Assembly (NCBI GenBank): GCA_963792585.1
Contig: CAWBWI010000001.1
Span: forward strand, 1,664,001-1,728,000
Direction: 5' to 3'
DNA: 64,000 nucleotides
Source: Candidatus Eiseniibacteriota bacterium
Lineage (GTDB): Bacteria; Eisenbacteria; RBG-16-71-46; CAIMUX01; VGJL01
The notes below the pieces were generated by a model, which had not been told where the DNA came from, searched no databases, and saw nothing but the letters and a program-made list of their open reading frames with translations. Made by a program: the position numbers and the translations under genes. Shown here in pieces: positions 3,650-15,791 of the stretch; position 1 is the stretch's first letter, and each line of letters starts with the position of its first letter.

Positions 3650-4264
3650 TTACCGGTACAACGACTTCACACGCCCCCACGTCGTCTGGTCCGTCGGGGT
3701 CGACTCGCCGCAGTAACCGGTCCCACGCAGGACGATGTCGTACCCGCCGCCGGCCCAGGATCCTCTCCACGAGGCGAGCGGTCCCGGGGCGCCCTGGCCG
3801 TCGGGCGGGATTTCGACGCTCCGCGGGGCGGTGCTCCAGATATCGAAGCCGCCGGGATCCTGCGCGAAGACATCGTGCAGGCTCACGGCGAGGTAGTAGG
3901 TCCCCGGGTTCAGCACGTAGAGCCCCGTGATCGTGCTCGGGCCGTTGATGTAGAAGCCCTCCTGCGAGGTGATCCCGATGCTGTTGGGATCGAAGAGCCA
4001 GAGCGGCGCGCCGTCGATGTCCGTGCTCTGCAGCTGCGCCAGGAAGAGGGTCTTGTCGGTGATGTTGATGCAGTACATGTCGACGGTGTCGAAGCTGTCG
4101 AGCGTGCCGGTGATGTTCTGAAGCGGGCCATTGCCGATGGTCTGCTGACTCGTCGAGACGAGGTCGCCGGCATCGCCCTGCTCTACCCATGTCTGGGCCG
4201 ATGCGGAAATCGCCGTAGCCATTGAGATGGCGGTCAGCAAACCGAGGAGACGTGAACCAACCAT
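3650..4264 (-). CDS. Secreted DVUA0089/PPC-like domain protein with C-terminal TWGxxKxxYR motif
   Basis: GGAGGA RBS before ATG at 4264; signal peptide; WVEQGDAG...DVDMY-like...LWLFD..G...GTYYLAVS; ends TPTDQTTWGRVKSLYR. Confidence 0.8.
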   Translation of the reverse strand: MVGSRLLGLLTAISMATAISASAQTWVEQGDAGDLVSTSQQTIGNGPLQNITGTLDSFDTVDMYCINITDKTLFLAQLQSTDIDGAPLWLFDPNSIGITSQEGFYINGPSTITGLYVLNPGTYYLAVSLHDVFAQDPGGFDIWSTAPRSVEIPPDGQGAPGPLASWRGSWAGGGYDIVLRGTGYCGESTPTDQTTWGRVKSLYR

Positions 4265-4819
4265 GCGATCCTCCAGCGCGGCCGCTGCTTCCAATCGGGT
4301 CAAGGACGCGGGATACGGAACGGGAGAGTCTATCACATAGTGAGGCTGCATTCTGCGCGAACTCGGGGCCTGCCGGGGAAGACTTCGACCAGGCTGTTCA
4401 GGAGCGAATCACGCCCTCCTGGATCCGGCAAACGGCCGCAAGTCGATCGATCAGATGCTGCGTCTGCTCCAAGTACTGGTTTGCGAGGTCGATCTGATCG
4501 TGCGCGAGAAGCGGTCCTGACCCATCCACGTTCGCGAGCTCGCCCCTTTCAGGGAAGTCACCGAAGCTTCCGGTGACAAGACCGAATAACGTCATCAATC
4601 GCGCAGGACGATTTCTTTGCAGTTCAGGCATGTGCGGAGTGGGCGTCGAGTAAACTCCCGAGCGCAAGCAGGTCATCCCCCGGGCGCACCCCGCCTGATC
4701 TTTGCGCGAGACCTCGATCTCTCTTGACTCCCCCTCCCCAGGCGCACGAAACTCTTCCGTTGCCGCTTGAACCATCCTCCTAGGCTCATCCACCGAGGGG
4801 CATAACGGAAGGACGAACG

Positions 4820-7420
4820 ATGATCGCAAAGACGATCCAGGCGGCCGCGCTTTCGGTAGCAACTCTTGTCCTCATCCTCTTCGCGGTCGCTCCGCTCGCC
4901 GATGGCAAGCCCGACACGTCGGGCAAGTCCGTCGAGTCGAGCATCGCCACCAAGCTCGGTGACTCCGGCAGCCCCACCAAACCAGGCGAATCCGGCAGCC
5001 CCACCGAGCCCGGTGAACCCACCAAGTCCTCCACGCCCGCGGAACCGTGGGAAGAAGGCGAAGACGGCGGCCCCCAGCGCTCGATCGACTACTTCAACCA
5101 GTGGATCGGTGAGCCGCTCACTCCCGAACGGCTCCATCAGATGTGGGATGAGGTTCTCGCCACTCCGTCCGAGCCGCCCGCGGGGGCGCAGGACTTCGTC
5201 AACTCGTGGGAGCTCATCGGTCCGCTCTACAGCGTGAACCCGGGCAGCGGATACATGACGGGTCGCGTGCGCGACATCGAAGCATCGACGACTCGTGTGC
5301 TCGCGGCCAGCGGCGGTCTCTGGCGATTCCACTTCGGGCCGATTCCCATGACGGAATCGATCCCCGCGAGCTGGTTCGGCAGCTTCTCGTCGAAGCCGGG
5401 CGATTCGAACACGATCCTGGTCGGCACCGGGGAATACCTCATCGGGTCGGGCACGGGGCTGTACAAGACACTCGATGGCGGCGCGACCTGGATGCACGCC
5501 TACATGACCCCGGAGCCGGCCCAGTTCCACAAGGTCCGCTGGTCGCCGACGGGCGCGGTCGCCTATGCGGCGACCACGAGCGGCTTCTACCGTTCCACAG
5601 ATGGAGGCTTGGTCTGGAGCCGCACGCTCACGGCCAACGTCACCGACCTCTCCACCGACGACAGCGGCTACTACCCGAACCTGGTCTACGCCTGTGTCTA
5701 CAACGACGGCCTCCACCGTTCGAACGATGCGGGAGTGACCTGGAGCAAGATGACGGATGGAGGCATCCCGCTCACCGGGACGCAGGAAGGAGCGGTCAGC
5801 ACCCCGGCCCACTCCCCATTCGTCCCTGGCTGGATCTACGTCTCGTTCGTGAACGCGGGGGTCTGGCGCTCGACCGACGGCGGCGCGACGTGGGCGAACA
5901 TCACGCCCGCGTCGGATCCCCACCGTTTCTGGTACGCGAACGTGATCGTCGCAGATCGTTGGGAGAACAACTACGTCCTGCTCGGCGGCGTGGGCGCGAG
6001 GGTCTCGGCCGACGGGGGCGCCACCTGGACCGCGCTCGTCACCCCTAATCTCCACGCCGACTATCACGCCTTCTCCTGGAACTCCGACGGCGTCGGGGTC
6101 TGGGCGGGCAATGACGGCGGTTGGTTCCACTCCACCGATCACGGTTTCACCTGGGATTCTTCCGCCAACGTGATGCCGATCACTCAGTTCTACAACATCG
6201 ACTGCGAGAAGTCCGAGATCGGATACATGATCGGCGGGACGCAGGACAACGACCTCGTTTACACCCCCACGCAGGACCTCTTCTGGAGCGACAAGGGCGA
6301 GGGGGACGGTGCGGGGGTCTCCGTCGATCTCTACACGCTCGGCCGGATGTGGGGCATGCACGGTGTATTCGGCGGCAATCTGAGCTACCACCGCGAGCGG
6401 ACCACCAACGGCGGCGTCAGTTGGCAGGAGGTCGACAACGGGATCGACCCGAACACGAACGCCGGCGTGATCCGCGGGGACAATGGGTTCAACCCGTGGC
6501 TGATCACGAGCGCGGGTCCGCACGTCTACGACTCTGTCGACCTTGGCGACACCTGGACGAAGTCGAACACGACGCCCTTCCCCTCCAACATCGCGAACCT
6601 GACCTCCTCCACGCGCGTCAATCCCAACGCGGTCGCCTATGCCTGCATGGCGGGCGTCGTCGGCGGGCAGTCTCTCTTCGTCCGGGACGGAGGCGTTTGG
6701 GTCGACCGCTCGGCGGGGCTGCCCGTGGGGTACACGGTCCGCAAGGTCGTTCCGCATCCCTGGTCCGGCAATTACGCCGACGAGGCGTGGGCGTTGATGA
6801 ACGGAATCAGCAACCCCGGCCAGAAGATCTATCACACGACAAACCGCGGGGTCACATGGACGAACGCCACCGGCGATCTACCCAACGTCCCAGTCGGCGA
6901 CCTCGTCGTTAATCCCCGATCGACGAACCAGCTCGTTCTCGGGTCGATGCTCGGCTGCTACCGCTCGATCGACGGCGGCGCCCACTGGGAGCGGTGGAAC
7001 AACGGGCTGCCCCCGTCGGTCATGGTCACCGAGATGTCCTACATCGACCTCACGCCTTCCGACGGTCCGTTCTACGTGGTGGCGGCGACGCACGGCCGCT
7101 CGGCGTGGAGGCGCATCATCCTGGGGACCGATCCGGCGGCCGTGGAGAATGCCGGGGCCCCGCTTCCTCTCGACCTATCCATTGCGAATCCCGTCGTCGA
7201 GCGCGCGACGTTGCAGTTCTTTCTCCCTCAGGCGGGACCGGCGCGGATCGAAGTCTACGATGTGCGCGGCGAGCGGGTCGCTACCGTCCTCGACGCGACC
7301 GTCTCGCAAGGTCGCCACGAGATCGAGCTCGACGGGCGCACGCTTGCCCCGGGTGTGTTCTTCTGTCGCCTCGATAGCGGCGACCGCACGGTTGTGAGGA
7401 AGATCACCGTGGTGCGGTGA
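4820..7420 (+). CDS. Secreted BNR/Asp-box (Vps10/GH74-like) beta-propeller protein with C-terminal FlgD/T9SS-type domain
   Basis: Signal peptide; WELIGP...GRVRDI, many S/T-x-D-G-G-x-T-W Asp-boxes, LHADYH, GGTQDN, GDG; C-terminal YDVRGERV...PGVFFCRL...KITVVR. Confidence 0.9.
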   Translation: MIAKTIQAAALSVATLVLILFAVAPLADGKPDTSGKSVESSIATKLGDSGSPTKPGESGSPTEPGEPTKSSTPAEPWEEGEDGGPQRSIDYFNQWIGEPLTPERLHQMWDEVLATPSEPPAGAQDFVNSWELIGPLYSVNPGSGYMTGRVRDIEASTTRVLAASGGLWRFHFGPIPMTESIPASWFGSFSSKPGDSNTILVGTGEYLIGSGTGLYKTLDGGATWMHAYMTPEPAQFHKVRWSPTGAVAYAATTSGFYRSTDGGLVWSRTLTANVTDLSTDDSGYYPNLVYACVYNDGLHRSNDAGVTWSKMTDGGIPLTGTQEGAVSTPAHSPFVPGWIYVSFVNAGVWRSTDGGATWANITPASDPHRFWYANVIVADRWENNYVLLGGVGARVSADGGATWTALVTPNLHADYHAFSWNSDGVGVWAGNDGGWFHSTDHGFTWDSSANVMPITQFYNIDCEKSEIGYMIGGTQDNDLVYTPTQDLFWSDKGEGDGAGVSVDLYTLGRMWGMHGVFGGNLSYHRERTTNGGVSWQEVDNGIDPNTNAGVIRGDNGFNPWLITSAGPHVYDSVDLGDTWTKSNTTPFPSNIANLTSSTRVNPNAVAYACMAGVVGGQSLFVRDGGVWVDRSAGLPVGYTVRKVVPHPWSGNYADEAWALMNGISNPGQKIYHTTNRGVTWTNATGDLPNVPVGDLVVNPRSTNQLVLGSMLGCYRSIDGGAHWERWNNGLPPSVMVTEMSYIDLTPSDGPFYVVAATHGRSAWRRIILGTDPAAVENAGAPLPLDLSIANPVVERATLQFFLPQAGPARIEVYDVRGERVATVLDATVSQGRHEIELDGRTLAPGVFFCRLDSGDRTVVRKITVVR
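4958..5011 (+). repeat. Intragenic 27-bp tandem repeat (GDSGSPTKP / GESGSPTEP)
   Basis: Units 4958-4984 and 4985-5011 in the low-complexity linker after the signal peptide. Confidence 0.7.
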
Positions 7421-7666
7421 TTGGAGCAGTGAGTGCGGCATAAGCCGGTGATCGGAGCCGGGAGGACAGGGACGTCTTCTCGGCTCCGGCGTTTGCGGCA
7501 CGCACGCATGCGCGGGCCGACCGCCCACTCACAGTCGGAAGATAAGAAGTCGCTCTCGGCCGACCCACAACCCCGCGAATCCCGTGACTCAGCGGGAACA
7601 TCGGCGTATGATTGCCGTTGTCAAAATCCCATGGAGAATTCTCGGGGTTCCACCGAGGAGGGCTCG

Positions 7667-9889
7667 ATGCGCCGCGCACTTCTGTTTGTCTTCCTTCTGT
7701 CTGCACCCGGCTTGTTCGCGTCCTCGGCCCACGCCTTCACGGGCCATCCGACGGGTCCGTCCACCGTGGCGATCAACTCCGTCCTGGCATCGCCGTGGAC
7801 GGACGGCGAGTGGTACGCGGGTTCGGCCAACACCGTTTATCGCTATAGCCCGGCGACCGACGCTTGGACTTCCTCCGGCGACGGGCTTCCGTTCGGGCAG
7901 GTCACGAGCCTCGTCGGTGGTCCAAACATGTTCGGGCTGCTCTACTGCGCCGTCCCTGCGCAGGGCGCCTGCCGGTCGACGGACTACGGCGGGTCCTGGA
8001 TCGGGATCAATAACGGACTCGACAACCTGAACGTCTCCGCGCTCGCACTCGATCCATCGCACCCGCACAACGTCTTCGCCGCCACGGGCGCGGGGGTCTA
8101 CAAGAGCACGAACAGCGGCGACACGTGGATCGCGGGCGGACTTGCGGGCAAGCCGGTCCTCGACATCGCCTTCGGTTCGAGCGGCACCACGTATGCGTGG
8201 GCCTCGGTCTCCGGCGAGGGGATCTACCGGACTTCTGACCACGGAGCGACCTGGAACATCGCTTCCAACGGGATGACGGGAGAGAAGATCTTCCACGACG
8301 TAAAGGTCCAGTTGTACGGACACATCTACGCGGTGGGCCGGGGGTGCTTCCGCTCGACGAACGGAGGCGACTCGTGGACCGCCTTCGGCGCGGAGTACGG
8401 GTCTCCCTACACCGAGGTCTGGGAGATCGCCGGGCGACCGAACGACCCGCACCAGGTCGCCGTCGCGACTCTAGGAAGCGGCGTCTGGCGGTCGACGGAT
8501 GGCGGCGTCACCTGGGCGCCGATCCCGCCCCCCTGCACCGGTCACGAGTACCTGGCGATCGCCTCGCGCTTCTTCGACACCGGCGAGGTTCTCGTGGGCG
8601 GATACGGCGGCGAGATCTTCCGCTCTGACGCCTTCGGCGACGCCTGGCACTGGTGCAACCGTGGGATCTCCACGGCGATCGTCTTCTCGATGGCCGCGCA
8701 CGGGGAACGCTGGCTGGCGGGAACCGAGCGCGGGATCTACGTCAGCGAGAACTCCGGCTTCGACTGGGAGACTTCGGACCTGGTGTTTGACGTCGGCGCG
8801 GAGGCCTTCACCGTCGTCTTCGCGCCGGGAGACGGGATGACGGCCTGGTGCGGGACGGCTTCCCTCGACGCGGGCGAGATCTACAAGAGCGTCGACGGCG
8901 GCCATCACTGGACACCCGTTCGCGCGACCGCGGGGAGCATGAAGGCTCTGGCTGTGGATCCAGTCGATCCGTCACGAGTTTACGCGGGGTACACCTGCAA
9001 CCTGGTCCGCACGACCGACGGCGGGTCGAGCTGGATCGTCCAGAGCTTGGACGGGGTCTGCGTCAACGCGCTGCAGGTGATCGAGGCGACGCCGTCGATC
9101 ATCCTGGCCGGCACGAACAACGGGATCTGGCGCAGCACGAACTACGGAGATACGTGGGAGCAGGTCGGCCTCACCGGCACGCTAGTTCTCGACATCTCCG
9201 CGGATGCGAGCGTGGCGAGCCGCTTCTTTGCCGCGACCATCGGTTCCCGCGTCCATGTAACGAACGACTTCGGCGTCACCTGGTCCCCCTTCGGCGGGAA
9301 CGACCTGCCCGTCAATGTCTACTCGGTCGACGGCATGACGCCGGCGGCGGGCGTGCTCGCGGGAACGGAGGCCAACGGGATCTGGCGGTACACGGGATCG
9401 GACTGGGCACAGCTTCCCACTGAGGAGCAACCGAACGCGAGTGGAATCCTCTGCTTCGTGGGCGGGATCGATGGTGGGCGGTTCCTGGCGGGCACCTACG
9501 GCGCGGGGGTGTGGGACTACATCGTGAATCCGTCCTTGGTCGAGGATCTGGGCGGCAAACGTTTGCCGCTGAAGCTCGCGGTGACCGGTTCGCCTGGGAG
9601 CGGGCCGTTCCGGATGGAGTTGGCGGGCGGCACAGTGGCGTCGGGGCGCGCGGCAACGCGCAGCGAGACGGCTGGGGCCACAGCGGGGCGCGTCGAGATC
9701 CTCGATGCACTCGGACGCACCGTGCGCGTGATCGACACGGCGGGGCCGGGTGCGCCCGGCGCCGCTTCCTCGACCTGGGATGGACGCGATACTCACGGCG
9801 ACGATGTTCCCGCCGGGATCTACTTCGTGCGGGCGCGCGTCGTGGCCGGCGGTGCCGTCGCCGGAGCGAAGATCACGGTGGTGCGGTAG
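7667..9889 (+). CDS. Secreted BNR/Asp-box beta-propeller protein with C-terminal FlgD-Ig domain
   Basis: GAGGAGG RBS before ATG 7667 (MRRALLFVFLL signal); repeated RSTDxGxxW; C-terminal WDGRDTHGDDVPAGIYFVR...KITVVR. Confidence 0.88.
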   Translation: MRRALLFVFLLSAPGLFASSAHAFTGHPTGPSTVAINSVLASPWTDGEWYAGSANTVYRYSPATDAWTSSGDGLPFGQVTSLVGGPNMFGLLYCAVPAQGACRSTDYGGSWIGINNGLDNLNVSALALDPSHPHNVFAATGAGVYKSTNSGDTWIAGGLAGKPVLDIAFGSSGTTYAWASVSGEGIYRTSDHGATWNIASNGMTGEKIFHDVKVQLYGHIYAVGRGCFRSTNGGDSWTAFGAEYGSPYTEVWEIAGRPNDPHQVAVATLGSGVWRSTDGGVTWAPIPPPCTGHEYLAIASRFFDTGEVLVGGYGGEIFRSDAFGDAWHWCNRGISTAIVFSMAAHGERWLAGTERGIYVSENSGFDWETSDLVFDVGAEAFTVVFAPGDGMTAWCGTASLDAGEIYKSVDGGHHWTPVRATAGSMKALAVDPVDPSRVYAGYTCNLVRTTDGGSSWIVQSLDGVCVNALQVIEATPSIILAGTNNGIWRSTNYGDTWEQVGLTGTLVLDISADASVASRFFAATIGSRVHVTNDFGVTWSPFGGNDLPVNVYSVDGMTPAAGVLAGTEANGIWRYTGSDWAQLPTEEQPNASGILCFVGGIDGGRFLAGTYGAGVWDYIVNPSLVEDLGGKRLPLKLAVTGSPGSGPFRMELAGGTVASGRAATRSETAGATAGRVEILDALGRTVRVIDTAGPGAPGAASSTWDGRDTHGDDVPAGIYFVRARVVAGGAVAGAKITVVR

Positions 9890-11742: not shown

Positions 11743-11837
11743 AGACCGACCGTGAGTCCCAGCGGGACGCGGCGGGACGGCCCCCGCCGCGATCCCCAAG
11801 CCCACACTACAGCCTCCTTGTAGCAACGAGAATGTGT

Positions 11838-11892: not shown

Positions 11893-11955
11893 CCTCGGTT
11901 CGCTGAATACGGCCGCCGCGACGCGATTGACATGAAATCCCAAGGAGGGGCGACC

Positions 11956-12756
11956 GTGGCCAAGGAACAGGACAAGATCAGTCAAACTTTGAAGCAACTC
12001 GCCGAACAGGCGCGTTTGGATTCGATCGGCAGCATCGACTACCTCACGAACGCCAAGGCGATCGCTCTCGCCGACGGCAAGGTCCAGGATGCCATCAAGG
12101 AAGTTCTGAAACGAGACATGCGACTGACGGAGATTCGCCCCATGCGCGGCTTCGGCTCCGGCCTCATGTCCTTCCCCATCCAATTGGTATTCCGTTCGGG
12201 AACCGGTGACAGCCCGATCGATCTCGAGACCGTGTCCTTGGTCGTCACGGTGGAGATCCCCACGCGCTCGGTCAAGCGCGTCGCCGAGGCTCCCGCCGGG
12301 ATCGAGGGAGCTGCGGGGGACATCCCCTTCTCGATCGCGGCGACGGCGCACGCCCCCTATCGCGGCGCGCCGCTCACCGAACTCCAGGGCAGGACGATGC
12401 GGGAGAGCGCATTCTACGCCGGCCTCGGATTCCCCGTGGGTGCAGGTCGCCCGTCGGCGGGGCAGTGGACGATCGACGACTACAAGACCAGCGACACCCC
12501 CACGGGAACGGACACCGGGAGCACCTCCTACTCCGACGGCGTGGCCGACGACTCGGAGGTCGACGATTCGGGTTCCGACGAGCCAGTCATCGACGACCAC
12601 ATCACCGAGGGGCACCCGGGAGATCCCGGATACTGGTCGCCGTTCGATCCGGGCCGCCCTTTCGGAGGCGATCTCCCCCGACCCGGCGACCGTCCGGGTG
12701 TCGGCCCGCGACCGGATCCGCGAGGAGGCACTGCCCGCAAGCGGTCCGGACGATGA
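11956..12756 (+). CDS. Putative large graspetide (omega-ester RiPP) precursor / ATP-grasp substrate protein
   Basis: AAGGAGGGG RBS before GTG 11956 (alternative ATG 11932); internal TIDDYKTSDTPTGTDTGSTSYSDGVADDSEVDDSGSDEPVIDD segment; stop overlaps the ATP-grasp start (ATGA). Confidence 0.7.
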   Translation: MAKEQDKISQTLKQLAEQARLDSIGSIDYLTNAKAIALADGKVQDAIKEVLKRDMRLTEIRPMRGFGSGLMSFPIQLVFRSGTGDSPIDLETVSLVVTVEIPTRSVKRVAEAPAGIEGAAGDIPFSIAATAHAPYRGAPLTELQGRTMRESAFYAGLGFPVGAGRPSAGQWTIDDYKTSDTPTGTDTGSTSYSDGVADDSEVDDSGSDEPVIDDHITEGHPGDPGYWSPFDPGRPFGGDLPRPGDRPGVGPRPDPRGGTARKRSGR

Positions 12757-13679
12757 TTCTCCTGATCGCGGAGCCGCAGGATGTCCACGCACGCGTGGTG
12801 GCGCGCCGCCTCGAGCTGCGCGGTGTCTCTCATGCGATCGTGAACTCAGCCGATTTTCCACAGCGCCTGAGGATCTCCGCGCGCTATGCGGATGGCCGCT
12901 TCGCGATCCGCATGGCGAACGGCTCCCCCATCGTCCAGGACGAGGAGATCCAGGGCGTCTGGTTGCGCCGATTCCACGCGCACGACATCTCGACGGCGAT
13001 CTCTGACGAGGCGGTTGCCGCATTCGCCTATCGGGAGGCGCGCGAGCTGTTCCTTGGCTGGACGGCCAGCGTGCGCAATGTCATCAATCCTCGCAGCGAG
13101 GAGTGGCGGGCGGAGCTGAAGCCGTTCCAGCTCTTCGCTGCGCAGGAAGTCGGCCTGCGAATCCCGCGAACCCTGGTCTCGAACGACCCGGCCGAGATCC
13201 ACGCGTTCGCCGACTCGCTCGGCGGCGAGGCGATCTTCAAGGTCCTCTCGGCGACACCGTTCCAGTTCACGGCAACTACGGTCCTCGAGGAACGTCATCT
13301 GGCGATGCTCGATGCCGCGCCCCTCGCGCCCACGATATTCCAGGAACGGATCCGGGCCGACCGGCACCTGCGCGTGACGGTGGTGGACGACCATGTCTTC
13401 ACGGCGGCGATCGAGCCGGTCCGCGAGGAGGGGATGCTCGACTGGAGGCTGGATCGCGACCCGAAGATGGAACCCTACGACCTACCCGAATCGATCGAGC
13501 AGGGCGTGCTGGCGTTGCGCCGCCGGCTCGGATTGCGGTTTGGGGCGATCGACATGATCCTCGACACCAAGGGCGAGTACGTATTCCTGGAGATCAACCC
13601 GGGCGGGCAGTGGCTCTTCGCCGAGATTCATGCGGGGCTGCCGATCTCGGACGCGATCGCGGATGCGCTGATCGGGTAG
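12753..13679 (+). CDS. MvdC/MvdD-family ATP-grasp ribosomal peptide maturase (graspetide synthetase)
   Basis: MILLI..P.D.HA..V, DFP, VWLRR, KPFQL..A..VGLRIPRTLVSNDP, IFQERI, RVTVV, DWR, FGAIDMI, FLEINPGGQWLF. Confidence 0.9.
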   Translation: MILLIAEPQDVHARVVARRLELRGVSHAIVNSADFPQRLRISARYADGRFAIRMANGSPIVQDEEIQGVWLRRFHAHDISTAISDEAVAAFAYREARELFLGWTASVRNVINPRSEEWRAELKPFQLFAAQEVGLRIPRTLVSNDPAEIHAFADSLGGEAIFKVLSATPFQFTATTVLEERHLAMLDAAPLAPTIFQERIRADRHLRVTVVDDHVFTAAIEPVREEGMLDWRLDRDPKMEPYDLPESIEQGVLALRRRLGLRFGAIDMILDTKGEYVFLEINPGGQWLFAEIHAGLPISDAIADALIG

Positions 13680-13802
13680 GCGGAACGGGACGTGGCCGCC
13701 CGTTCCCGCCGCGGAGATCCCCTGGCGGATCTGCCTGGTGCGCTCCTCGCCCCTCTGCGTTAGCCTCCCCGGAGAGCCGGCAACCCACTCCGAGGAGGAC
13801 CC

Positions 13803-15791
13803 ATGCCGCACCCCCCACAGCCCGATTTCACGAAGCTCCCGATCGATCGCGAGGATGTATGGCAAGGCGGGATGTTCCGCTTTCCCTCCTGGGTCGAGCC
13901 CCGGGGGGATCGTGCCCCCTTCCGACCCTGGCTTGCCATCTGGTGCAGCGGCGTGACCGGGCATGCGTTTTCGCCAAAGCTCGGCGAGGATCCGGCCAGA
14001 GACGCCGGTCTCCTCATCGGTGCGCTCCGGGAGACGTTTCGCAAGGCCGGCAGGGAGGCGTCCCTCCCCGCCCGACTTCAAGTGAGCGATCCTGAAGACG
14101 CAGCGATCGTTCGCGCGGCGGTCGAGGGTACCGGCGTCATCGTCGAGGTCGCCGATCGACTGGAAGCCTTCACGGAGTTCCGGGACGAGATGCGGAAGCA
14201 TGCTCGGCAGGATCAGACGATCGATCCCCTCACCGACGATCCGGAGATCAGCGTGGAGCAGGTGCGCTCATTCGCGGAGGCGGCGGCCGCCTTCTACCTC
14301 TACGAGCCCTGGGATCATTTCGACCAGGACGACCTCATCGAAATCGAGTGCGACCTTGCCGACGCGAAGCTCCGCCTGGCCACGGTCATGGGATCCGGAA
14401 ACGAGGAGTTCGGGATCTTCTTCATGGAATCGCAGGAGCAGTACGATTCAATCCTCTCGGGCACAGAGAGTGATGGAAGGATCGTCCGTCTGGGCGGAGA
14501 TTGGGGCGTCACCTTCTGCCCCCCCTACGAGATCCCCGTCGCGGAGCATGATCTCTGGGAAGACCACGGACTCCCTCTGGCGGACGCCGACGCGTACCCT
14601 TGCCCCGTGAGGATCGGCCCGAGCCGGCGGGTCGGGCGCCCCAACGCTCGCCAGCTTGCCTATTTCGAGGGACTGATGCGCGCTCTGACGCAGTCGACCG
14701 AGGACGAGATGGATTCCGGGCGATGGGAGAAGACGGTCTCCACGAGTTCGGGGATGACTACGATCCGGCTGCGTCTCCCGGGCGTCTTGGCGGACGAGGC
14801 CGGCGATCCCGCCGCGCAGTCAGGTCTGCGAACGGACCGCCGTGGTATCGAGAAGGGGATCTCGGAGATCCAGCGTTTCATGGCCACGCAGAATTTCAGC
14901 AACATCGAGGAGGCGGAGGCCGCGATCCAGTCGCGGTTCCTCGGTCGCTCGATCGACAGTTTCCCGTCCACCGCAGCCACACCACTCGAACGGGCGCAGG
15001 AGATCATGTACGACGCATTCGAGGCCCGTGGCCGGACAAGGATCAAGCTCGCTCGCCGGGCCTTGGCGATCTCGCCCGACTGCGCGGACGCATACGGCTT
15101 GCTTGCCGCGCGCACGAACAACTTGGACAAGGCGCGGGATCTCCTGAAGGAGGCGGTCGCGGCCGGCGAGCGCGCGGTCCGATCCCTCGGCATCGATGCC
15201 GGAGAGATCGCATGGGGCGATATCCGGTGTCGGCCCTACCTTCGCGCCCGCTTCGCGCTTGCGGGGGTTCTCAGAGGATTCGGAGAAGTCGAAGACGCGT
15301 TGCGGGAGTTCGTCGAGATTCTGCGAACGGACCCGGACGATCATCAGGGGGTCCGGTACGAACTGCTGACGTTGCTGCTCGAGCTCAAGAAGGACCGTGA
15401 GGCTCACGCTCTTCTCGAGCAATTCCCGGACGAGGGCGGCGCGCTGTGGCCTTACGCGCGCGCACTGCTCGCCTACAGACAGGAAGGCGGAAGCGCCGAG
15501 GCAGATCGACTGGCCGATCGCGCCCTGAAGGCGAACCCCTTCATGTGGAAGTTCCTCGCCGGGACTCAAGATCCGCCGTTCGACGTGCCGGAGGCCTATC
15601 GGCCGGGCAGCCGGGAGGAAGCGATCGTCTTCGCCGAGGATCTCGCGCCGATCTGGCAGGACACGCCGGGAGCGGCAGAGTGGATCCGGTCGCGGGGACG
15701 GAGTCGATCGAAGGAGAAGGCCGGCGGCGGGAAGTCCGGCGCCGGTGGGCGTGGGAAACCGAAAGGGCCAAAGAAGCAGAAGCCACGCTGA
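13803..15791 (+). CDS. Hypothetical protein with C-terminal TPR/ST7-like region (DUF7309/DUF6930-like N-terminus)
   Basis: GAGGAGG RBS; PW..F..DDLIEI...VMG..E.FG region, then AQEIMYDA...ALAISPDCADAY...RPYLRAR...DPDDHQGVRY. Confidence 0.8.
   Translation: MPHPPQPDFTKLPIDREDVWQGGMFRFPSWVEPRGDRAPFRPWLAIWCSGVTGHAFSPKLGEDPARDAGLLIGALRETFRKAGREASLPARLQVSDPEDAAIVRAAVEGTGVIVEVADRLEAFTEFRDEMRKHARQDQTIDPLTDDPEISVEQVRSFAEAAAAFYLYEPWDHFDQDDLIEIECDLADAKLRLATVMGSGNEEFGIFFMESQEQYDSILSGTESDGRIVRLGGDWGVTFCPPYEIPVAEHDLWEDHGLPLADADAYPCPVRIGPSRRVGRPNARQLAYFEGLMRALTQSTEDEMDSGRWEKTVSTSSGMTTIRLRLPGVLADEAGDPAAQSGLRTDRRGIEKGISEIQRFMATQNFSNIEEAEAAIQSRFLGRSIDSFPSTAATPLERAQEIMYDAFEARGRTRIKLARRALAISPDCADAYGLLAARTNNLDKARDLLKEAVAAGERAVRSLGIDAGEIAWGDIRCRPYLRARFALAGVLRGFGEVEDALREFVEILRTDPDDHQGVRYELLTLLLELKKDREAHALLEQFPDEGGALWPYARALLAYRQEGGSAEADRLADRALKANPFMWKFLAGTQDPPFDVPEAYRPGSREEAIVFAEDLAPIWQDTPGAAEWIRSRGRSRSKEKAGGGKSGAGGRGKPKGPKKQKPR

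Follow-up and report, generated by a model that had tools for sequence, protein, structure and literature searches.

Can a graspetide-type ligase act on a core that lies inside a protein-sized precursor, and what is the folded domain in front of that core? These questions are raised by two overlapping genes on the forward strand of the window (the whole stretch of 64,000 nucleotides that was analysed). The original prediction described the upstream gene product as a domain-sized leader, a single internal core and a follower. It considered crosslinking within a protein rather than release of a peptide. The features of the locus, with the basis for each in brackets, are as follows.

11943..11948, forward strand: AGGAGG, ribosome-binding-like site before the GTG start (read from the sequence)
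11956..12756, forward strand: likely graspetide precursor, 266 aa (ORF call; no Pfam or NCBIfam match)
11956..12297, forward strand: N-terminal domain (residues 1-114) with three helices, a sheet of four strands and a fold predicted to resemble PatG_C (predicted model, fold and profile comparison)
12316..12345, forward strand: leader motif GDIPFSIAAT, residues 121-130, predicted ligase-binding (family alignment, co-fold)
12367..12432, forward strand: leader helix, residues 138-159, RExxFxxxLG in the family, predicted ligase-binding (alignment, models)
12436..12471, forward strand: hypervariable Gly-rich linker, residues 161-172, candidate cleavage region (8% mean identity to distant members)
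12463..12600, forward strand: core, residues 170-215, with Thr/Ser donors, D194-G195 turn and Asp acceptors D198/199, D203/204, D208 and D213/214 (family alignment)
12601..12753, forward strand: Pro/Gly/Arg tail, residues 216-266, retained only in close relatives (family alignment)
12753..13679, forward strand: graspetide-type ATP-grasp ligase, 308 aa, ATGA-coupled to the precursor (profile, motif and structure matches)

Organization of the two-gene cassette

The precursor gene starts at a GTG 8 nt past the AGGAGG site. An alternative upstream ATG at 11932 would give a protein of 274 aa; the homologues start at the GTG instead. The TGA of the precursor overlaps the ATG of the ligase (ATGA) at 12753, and the ORF coordinates thereby confirm the overlapping pair as it was first described. 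Both genes are single-copy in their own genome (5.4 Mb, 84% complete). Next to the pair lie, as the nearest plausible genes, a minus-strand carbonic anhydrase, a gene matching neither Pfam nor NCBIfam, a DUF6930/DUF7309/TPR gene and a minus-strand kinase. Pfam and NCBIfam profiles identified no protease, transporter or tailoring enzyme among these neighbours. No short precursor was recognised by eye among the 8 and 6 ORFs of at least 20 aa that overlap the two flanking gaps. The original prediction had noted both absences, and both are borne out.

A relative approximately 93% identical retains the whole block, including the DUF6930/DUF7309/TPR gene (window 13803-15791), which lies on the same strand 123 nt downstream. 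In RNA-library contigs of this relative, the coverage of the cassette is as flat as that of its neighbours and is thus not evidence of expression. Scoring for promoter- and terminator-like sites gave none at the cassette, and no flanking repeats suggestive of a mobile boundary were found around it. GC-rich hairpin-like stretches that flank the cassette (11762-11795 and 13681-13712) were seen by eye and did not score as a terminator or repeat pair. Elsewhere in the window (3650-9889) are secreted-looking proteins with conserved C-terminal sorting-type tails, e.g. TTWGRVKSLYR. Such tails are typical of Eisenbacteria-like candidate phyla.

Identity of the ligase

The MvdC/D-type signatures first noted in the ligase (DFP, VWLRR, DWR and FLEINPGGQWLF) are all present. 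Its best profile match is TIGR04187 (SAV_5884 type; 228 bits, E 1e-67), a score that lies below the curated cut-off of 350. The scores for MvdC (203 bits, cut-off 425), MvdD (167, cut-off 475) and GRASP-with-SPASM (78, cut-off 230) are likewise below their cut-offs. RimK and LysX have the same ATP-grasp C-terminal fold; the query differs from both in carrying the MvdD pre-ATP-grasp domain (PF21068, 42.6 bits, above the cut-off of 27) and in scoring only 41.6 bits for RimK (cut-off 143) and 24 bits for LysX (cut-off 276) against 228 for the graspetide model. All six solved-structure matches are ATP-grasp ligases, including AMdnB and CdnC. These comparisons support assignment of the ligase as a graspetide synthetase and not a RimK/LysX enzyme.

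Alignment of 38 ligases (the query and 37 of the other 41 matches) revealed ten residues that are invariant in all 38, i.e. R72, R73, K123, K163, R207, D230, R232, D267, E280 and N282. Conserved acceptor-binding arginines and a D(F/W)R loop have been described for PsnB and graspetide enzymes (Song et al., 10.1101/2021.03.09.434688), and by motif position R72, R73, R207, D230 and R232 fit these features. A tree with 12 other synthetases groups the 38 ligases on a single branch (98/96). The sister of this branch is an enzyme from Burkholderia (100/99), and the remaining 11 synthetases lie apart from it. The placement that had been proposed as a check puts the ligase on this branch, and the profile scores set it far from RimK and LysX. 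Since the 38 rows were picked by similarity, the single branch is partly a matter of construction, and the tree shows separation rather than a defined clade.

Only more distant synthetases were returned when the ligase profile was run against 262 genomes from one alphaproteobacterial family and 206 genomes of the query's own phylum. Where upstream candidates of these synthetases are visible, they are short precursors that belong to other types. Unrelated graspetide synthetases occur in five other genomes of the phylum (L170-L178); some of them are paired and come with PFFA-type microviridin precursors.

Anatomy of the precursor family

A word-based search found six proteins of the precursor family including the query, and a profile search of 1.84 billion representatives returned 42 matches, of which 39 are plausible. 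Three candidates (P0036, P0040 and P0045) were dropped as unrelated repeats. The family alignment comprises 36 rows, with eight fragments left out, and 34 members were usable for counts of polarity and tail length. The family is rare and patchy. Within the own phylum it is convincing only in the query genome (1 of 206); a match in a further genome (G097, E 7e-4), confined to residues 175-258, was put down to composition. Searches yielded no family match on plasmids, none in 34 pattern stretches from viral contigs and none among at least 120 stretches listed by a front-domain motif scan of the genome collection. The atlas search gave no usable match, and the family profile found nothing under E 0.3 among the sequences of solved structures.

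The folded N-terminal domain that had been suspected is seen in a predicted model built from 36 sequences. In this model, residues 1-113 comprise three helices and four strands, most of them at a pLDDT above 90; core and tail are of low confidence. Behind the domain lies the family leader motif PFxLAxP, whose P124 is invariant in 36/36 rows. The aromatic motif SAFYAGLGFP, originally placed in a linker, is present where the leader helix ends, and PFSIA (124-128) is better conserved than it. On average, 28 distant members are identical to the query at 32% across residues 5-113, 33% in the motif (122-131), 25% in the helix, 8% in the linker (161-172), 26% in the core and 7% in the tail.

Core sequences vary widely across the family, and their order is kept. 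In 30/34 members, Thr/Ser are more numerous than acids ahead of the central turn and less numerous behind it, as the original description of a T/S/K-rich and then D/E-rich segment had it, apart from the Lys. The order is therefore no chance feature of the query alone. The query has a single Lys in the donor segment (K177), and at most 3/23 members have Lys in any column, which makes amide rings unlikely as a general feature. Counted from the turn in the 23 members that have Gly there, donors are most frequent at positions -2, -4, -6, -10 and -14, and Asp is found at +3 and +4 (16/23 each) and +8 (18/23). No register of donor-acceptor pairing stood out in these 23 sequences (best z 2.6 among 11 shifts). 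The Pro/Gly/Arg tail reaches at least 30 aa in only 10/34 members and is shorter than 15 aa in 22/34, which end at the core. The follower, counted at first as part of the architecture, is thus not a family trait.

Linkage of precursor and ligase

Direct gene-neighbour evidence covers close relatives. The ligase start overlaps the precursor stop in both metagenome loci that were found (88% and 68% identical). The frameshifted tail of one member (P0010) also fits an overlapping ligase start, scoring 165 where 100 shuffles reach no more than 138. Linkage in more distant members is indirect. By eye, 5/45 precursor contigs share their exact size with one of 42 ligase contigs (41713, 26081, 11747, 2001 and 23559), including members at 37% and approximately 23% identity. 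The 40 contigs without a size match are uninformative, as the ligase list stops at E 1e-60 and contigs of only 1-2 kb are common. In addition, a relative of the family is entered beside synthetase HEY7268451.1 from Dehalococcoidia in the supplementary table of Carter et al. (2026, PMC13097080). The upstream gene is likely the precursor of the ligase and appears, from these gene arrangements, to travel with it. Co-occurrence with ATP-grasp genes, one of the checks originally proposed, holds directly in the 2/2 overlapping loci; for distant members the matched contig sizes and the table entry point to it indirectly.

Predicted recognition of an internal leader

Co-folding of the ligase with precursor residues 1-222 gave a score of 0.67, compared with 0.09 for the best of three controls. 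The mark is reached by 116/157 solved pairs and by 2/215 that are mismatched. At least 30% of contacts are shared between runs, the partner pLDDT is at least 58, and confident contacts fall on precursor residues 121-130 and 138-159. In-silico co-folding, as had been suggested for this locus, is thus positive as a prediction, although the pass may reflect likeness to similar leader-ligase complexes that have already been solved. Residues outside the named contacts are uncertain, so that the model does not show the N-terminal domain to be off the ligase. The model predicts that the ligase-binding leader is an internal segment of ordinary size (121-159).

The leader motif pattern of graspetide precursors is given as Phhx(1,2)h (Makarova et al., PMC8939145). 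Many members of the family fit this pattern (PFVLAV, PFALAV, PFAIA); PFSIA of the query does not strictly fit. The same leader is found without a front domain in five precursors of approximately 80-140 aa in the supplementary table of Carter et al., where ungrouped precursors from Pseudomonas, Hyalangium and Pseudolabrys start almost at the leader motif (PMC13097080). Two alphaproteobacterial precursors in the table, MCC2110902.1 and MBX9590321.1, carry an SRR-containing segment ahead of the same leader (PMC13097080). These table entries support the leader independently of the co-fold model. The occurrence of the leader in short precursors marks the front domain as a separate module, and the "domain-sized leader" of the original prediction gives way to a predicted internal leader of residues 121-159. 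Ligases P0083 and P0090 bear the same taxon labels as MCC2110902.1 and MBX9590321.1, a link by label alone. The SRR-containing segment of these two precursors is presumably twin-arginine-like.

The sister ligase of Burkholderia stagnalis (L006:2436-4945, plasmid record; 39% identical) lies downstream of a 522-aa protein that has an N-terminal part with a HEIGH motif, Thr/Asp-rich repeats and a C-terminal PFVLSTPHH segment. We take the HEIGH-bearing part to be zinc-metalloprotease-like. From its sequence, this protein may combine a protease and its own graspetide cores in one chain, the recognition motif lying C-terminal to the cores. The likeness of PFVLSTPHH to the leader is by eye only, as the leader-only profile did not detect this segment in the Burkholderia protein. 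A Nitrosopumilus row in the table of Carter et al. has PFVLSTPH ahead of repeats (PMC13097080).

Resemblance of the front domain to the PatG DUF

The original reading overlooked what we regard as the most interesting point of the locus, the likeness of the predicted front domain to the domain of unknown function (DUF) of the cyanobactin protein PatG. With the front domain as query, Foldseek returned no row at E 0.001; a cathelin domain was the non-significant top row and the PatG DUF a weak row at E 0.43. In a wide structural search of 48,161 chains, the PatG DUF ranked first (4uvq 1070-1184, Z 9.3) and the next best chain had Z 6.1. The predicted front domain and 4uvq 1070-1184 align over 108 residues with an rmsd of 3.0 and 6% identity. 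Cystatin-fold chains reach Z 5-6 and leave the first helix uncovered. The front domain likely shares the fold of the C-terminal half of 4uvq, as judged from the predicted model. Both have the same order of elements over 114 and 115 positions, and a peptide-maturation context is common to both.

Pfam does not recognise the relationship, as 0/36 family members match PF18065 (PatG_C). Profile comparison used PatG_C sequences collected from genomes of three phyla (25/301, 2/301 and 1/401 above the cut-off) and six plasmid records. With 30 sequences the score was 25.8 (E 7e-4, probability 27%, 91 columns; 60 shuffles at most 17.7), and with 17 non-redundant sequences 26.9 (E 5e-4, probability 33%; shuffles at most 20.6). 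A subset of six divergent sequences, picked after being seen to be closer, scored 32.9 (E 3e-5, probability 73%, 96 columns; shuffles at most 18.3). An end-to-end profile alignment of the front domain with PatG_C lies above all shuffles and decoy windows. Together with the fold comparison, we consider the front domain to be probably homologous to PatG_C.

The setting of the domain differs from that of the PatG_C examples collected, which are C-terminal in proteins of approximately 290-1400 aa (PatA/PatG-sized, or shorter and often beside an S8 protease). Here, the domain stands alone at the N-terminus of a precursor rather than C-terminal behind PatG_D. No PF18047 (PatG_D) or PF18065 (PatG_C) match was found in the query's own genome (84% complete; controls silent), which argues weakly against docking on a PatA/PatG-type partner. 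Stand-alone PatG-DUF proteins of approximately 260-335 aa adjoin separate S8 proteases in actinomycetes and rhizobia (L158, L161, L162 and L166), and this subgroup is nearest in sequence to the precursor front domain. A Vibrio aquimaris record (L165:2341-4321) has two tandem PatG-DUF-like genes, with no protease evident among the ORFs listed, and Photobacterium (L164) has a similar DUF. The genes around the Vibrio pair we take to encode an AAA ATPase and small R-body (Reb)-like proteins. This context suggests that the PatG DUF has roles outside peptide maturation. The PatG DUF has been described as a novel fold for which no binding to the precursor PatE was seen and DUF-DUF contacts were suggested (Mann et al., PMC4259220).

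Comparison with known graspetide systems

The cassette shares the synthetase family and the Arg and D(F/W)R features with microviridin (MdnB/MdnC) and plesiocin (PsnB) systems. As in these systems, the precursor lies next to the ligase and combines a short Pro/aromatic leader motif with a core of Thr/Ser and Asp. It differs in that the ligase falls below the cut-off of every named NCBIfam graspetide model and the leader is internal, behind a 114-aa domain. The nearest published relative is the Dehalococcoidia precursor beside HEY7268451.1, which by eye is close to P0026 and has the same front domain, a PFALA leader, a Thr-Gly-Asp core and an adjacent synthetase. It is a single ungrouped row with no fold assignment in the table, and it is without the long tail (PMC13097080). 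Motif text searches of 20,891 of the 21,584 rows of Carter et al. recovered one member of the family. It is ungrouped, and in these rows the family has no assignment to the numbered graspetide groups 1-43.

A protein-sized precursor, presented at first as new, has precedents. The characterised corallotide precursor CorA (group 15) is approximately 22 kDa in size with an 86-aa helical N-domain and five KxxxD lactam repeats (PMC13097080). Group 41 (PMC13097080) and cluster 10071 of Makarova et al. (PMC8939145) include precursors with long N-terminal regions. Like the query, all three are graspetide precursors of protein size whose N-terminal region is long or folded. CorA combines a helical domain with lactam repeats, whereas the precursor described here has an alpha/beta domain and a single Thr/Ser-Asp core. 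In the rows covered, the front regions of group 41 and cluster 10071 show by eye none of the motifs of the query family, and membership of the family in group 41 was rejected on rows from part of that group.

Proposed mechanism and alternative explanations

Given the gene pair, its overlap, the family anatomy and the type of ligase, we think it probable that this is a two-gene cassette in which the ligase grips the internal leader and ties Thr/Ser to Asp as nested esters, with the front 114 residues as a separate carrier module. The ligase would bind the leader at residues 121-159. By analogy with known graspetide chemistry, Asp side chains phosphorylated by ATP would be attacked by Thr/Ser to form omega-esters, and approximately 3-5 of these would nest around the D194-G195 turn. 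Candidate donors are S193, S191, S189, T185 and T181, and candidate acceptors are D198, D199, D203, D204 and D208. An unlinked host protease might then cut the variable Gly-rich linker to free the ringed core. In this step the front domain would be a stabilising or self-associating pro-domain that is dispensable for catalysis. Release is the weakest step and we give it not quite an even chance; it is slightly favoured on account of the variable linker, the short forms and the statement that graspetide loci typically do not encode a peptidase (Makarova et al., PMC8939145). That statement also removes the missing protease as a sign of no release, as which it was originally taken.

The core may instead, in line with the original prediction, never be released, the mature product being the whole protein in which a PatG_C-like scaffold or oligomerisation unit displays a stapled hairpin. 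The front domain is as conserved as the leader motif in distant members (32% and 33%), neither a protease nor a transporter is adjacent, CorA precipitated after removal of its N-domain (PMC13097080) and a role in protein-protein contacts has been put forward for the PatG DUF (PMC4259220). Nevertheless, this outcome seems somewhat unlikely. Short precursors with the same leader resemble ordinary released peptides, the linker ahead of the core is hypervariable and Gly-rich, and a protease is typically missing from graspetide loci (PMC8939145). A C39 peptidase domain is also encoded approximately 400 kb from the cassette in the same genome, though nothing ties it to the cassette. Convergence on a helix-plus-sheet (cystatin-like) arrangement, which would make the front domain unrelated to PatG and perhaps a protease-inhibitor-like pro-domain, is unlikely. 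The 6% identity, the cystatin-fold chains, the cathelin row and the lack of a Pfam match speak for it, but the match at Z 9.3 takes in 108 of the 114 residues, among them the first helix, which the cystatin matches leave uncovered, and the end-to-end profile alignment exceeds every shuffle and decoy window.

Still less probable is an N-domain that acts as a built-in partner (chaperone or activator) of the ligase, as MirC does for MirB, fused here to the substrate. Partner-dependent synthetases exist and the N-domain of CorA binds CorB (PMC13097080), and precursor and ligase are translationally coupled; however, the same type of leader occurs beside synthetases in precursors without the domain, and the confident co-fold contacts lie in 121-159, with other contacts still possible. 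We consider it very improbable that the upstream protein is not a substrate at all and that the ligase acts on something else. The wide variation of the cores would allow this reading, but the stop-start overlap in all loci seen, the core polarity in 30/34 members, the leader docking in the model and the lack of another precursor candidate in the flanking gaps argue against it. The preferred reading remains the two-gene cassette with an internal leader.

Implications for graspetides and the PatG domain

What is new here is that the model of the front domain matches the C-terminal half of the cyanobactin PatG DUF, with weak profile support. The largely open-access literature searched gave no account of this family, nor of any graspetide precursor that bears a PatG-like domain. 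The family is easily missed, as one survey limited precursor candidates to at most 150 aa (Makarova et al., PMC8939145) and another holds a single ungrouped member. A broader and doubtful proposal is that PatG_C is a general docking or self-assembly module that moved from the tail of a cyanobactin protease to the head of a graspetide precursor, defining an undescribed group. The ligases would then share one leader behind interchangeable front modules (PatG_C-like, twin-arginine-like or none), and the product may be a stapled protein.

If the PatG_C-like reading is true, this half of the DUF occurs alone on the precursor of another peptide class, separated from both the protease and the partner half, which makes deletion and binding tests simple. 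The function of the cyanobactin domain would become directly testable in a two-gene system. A ligase that acts on an internal core following a folded domain, whether or not a tail comes after it, may also offer a means of stapling loops inside proteins.
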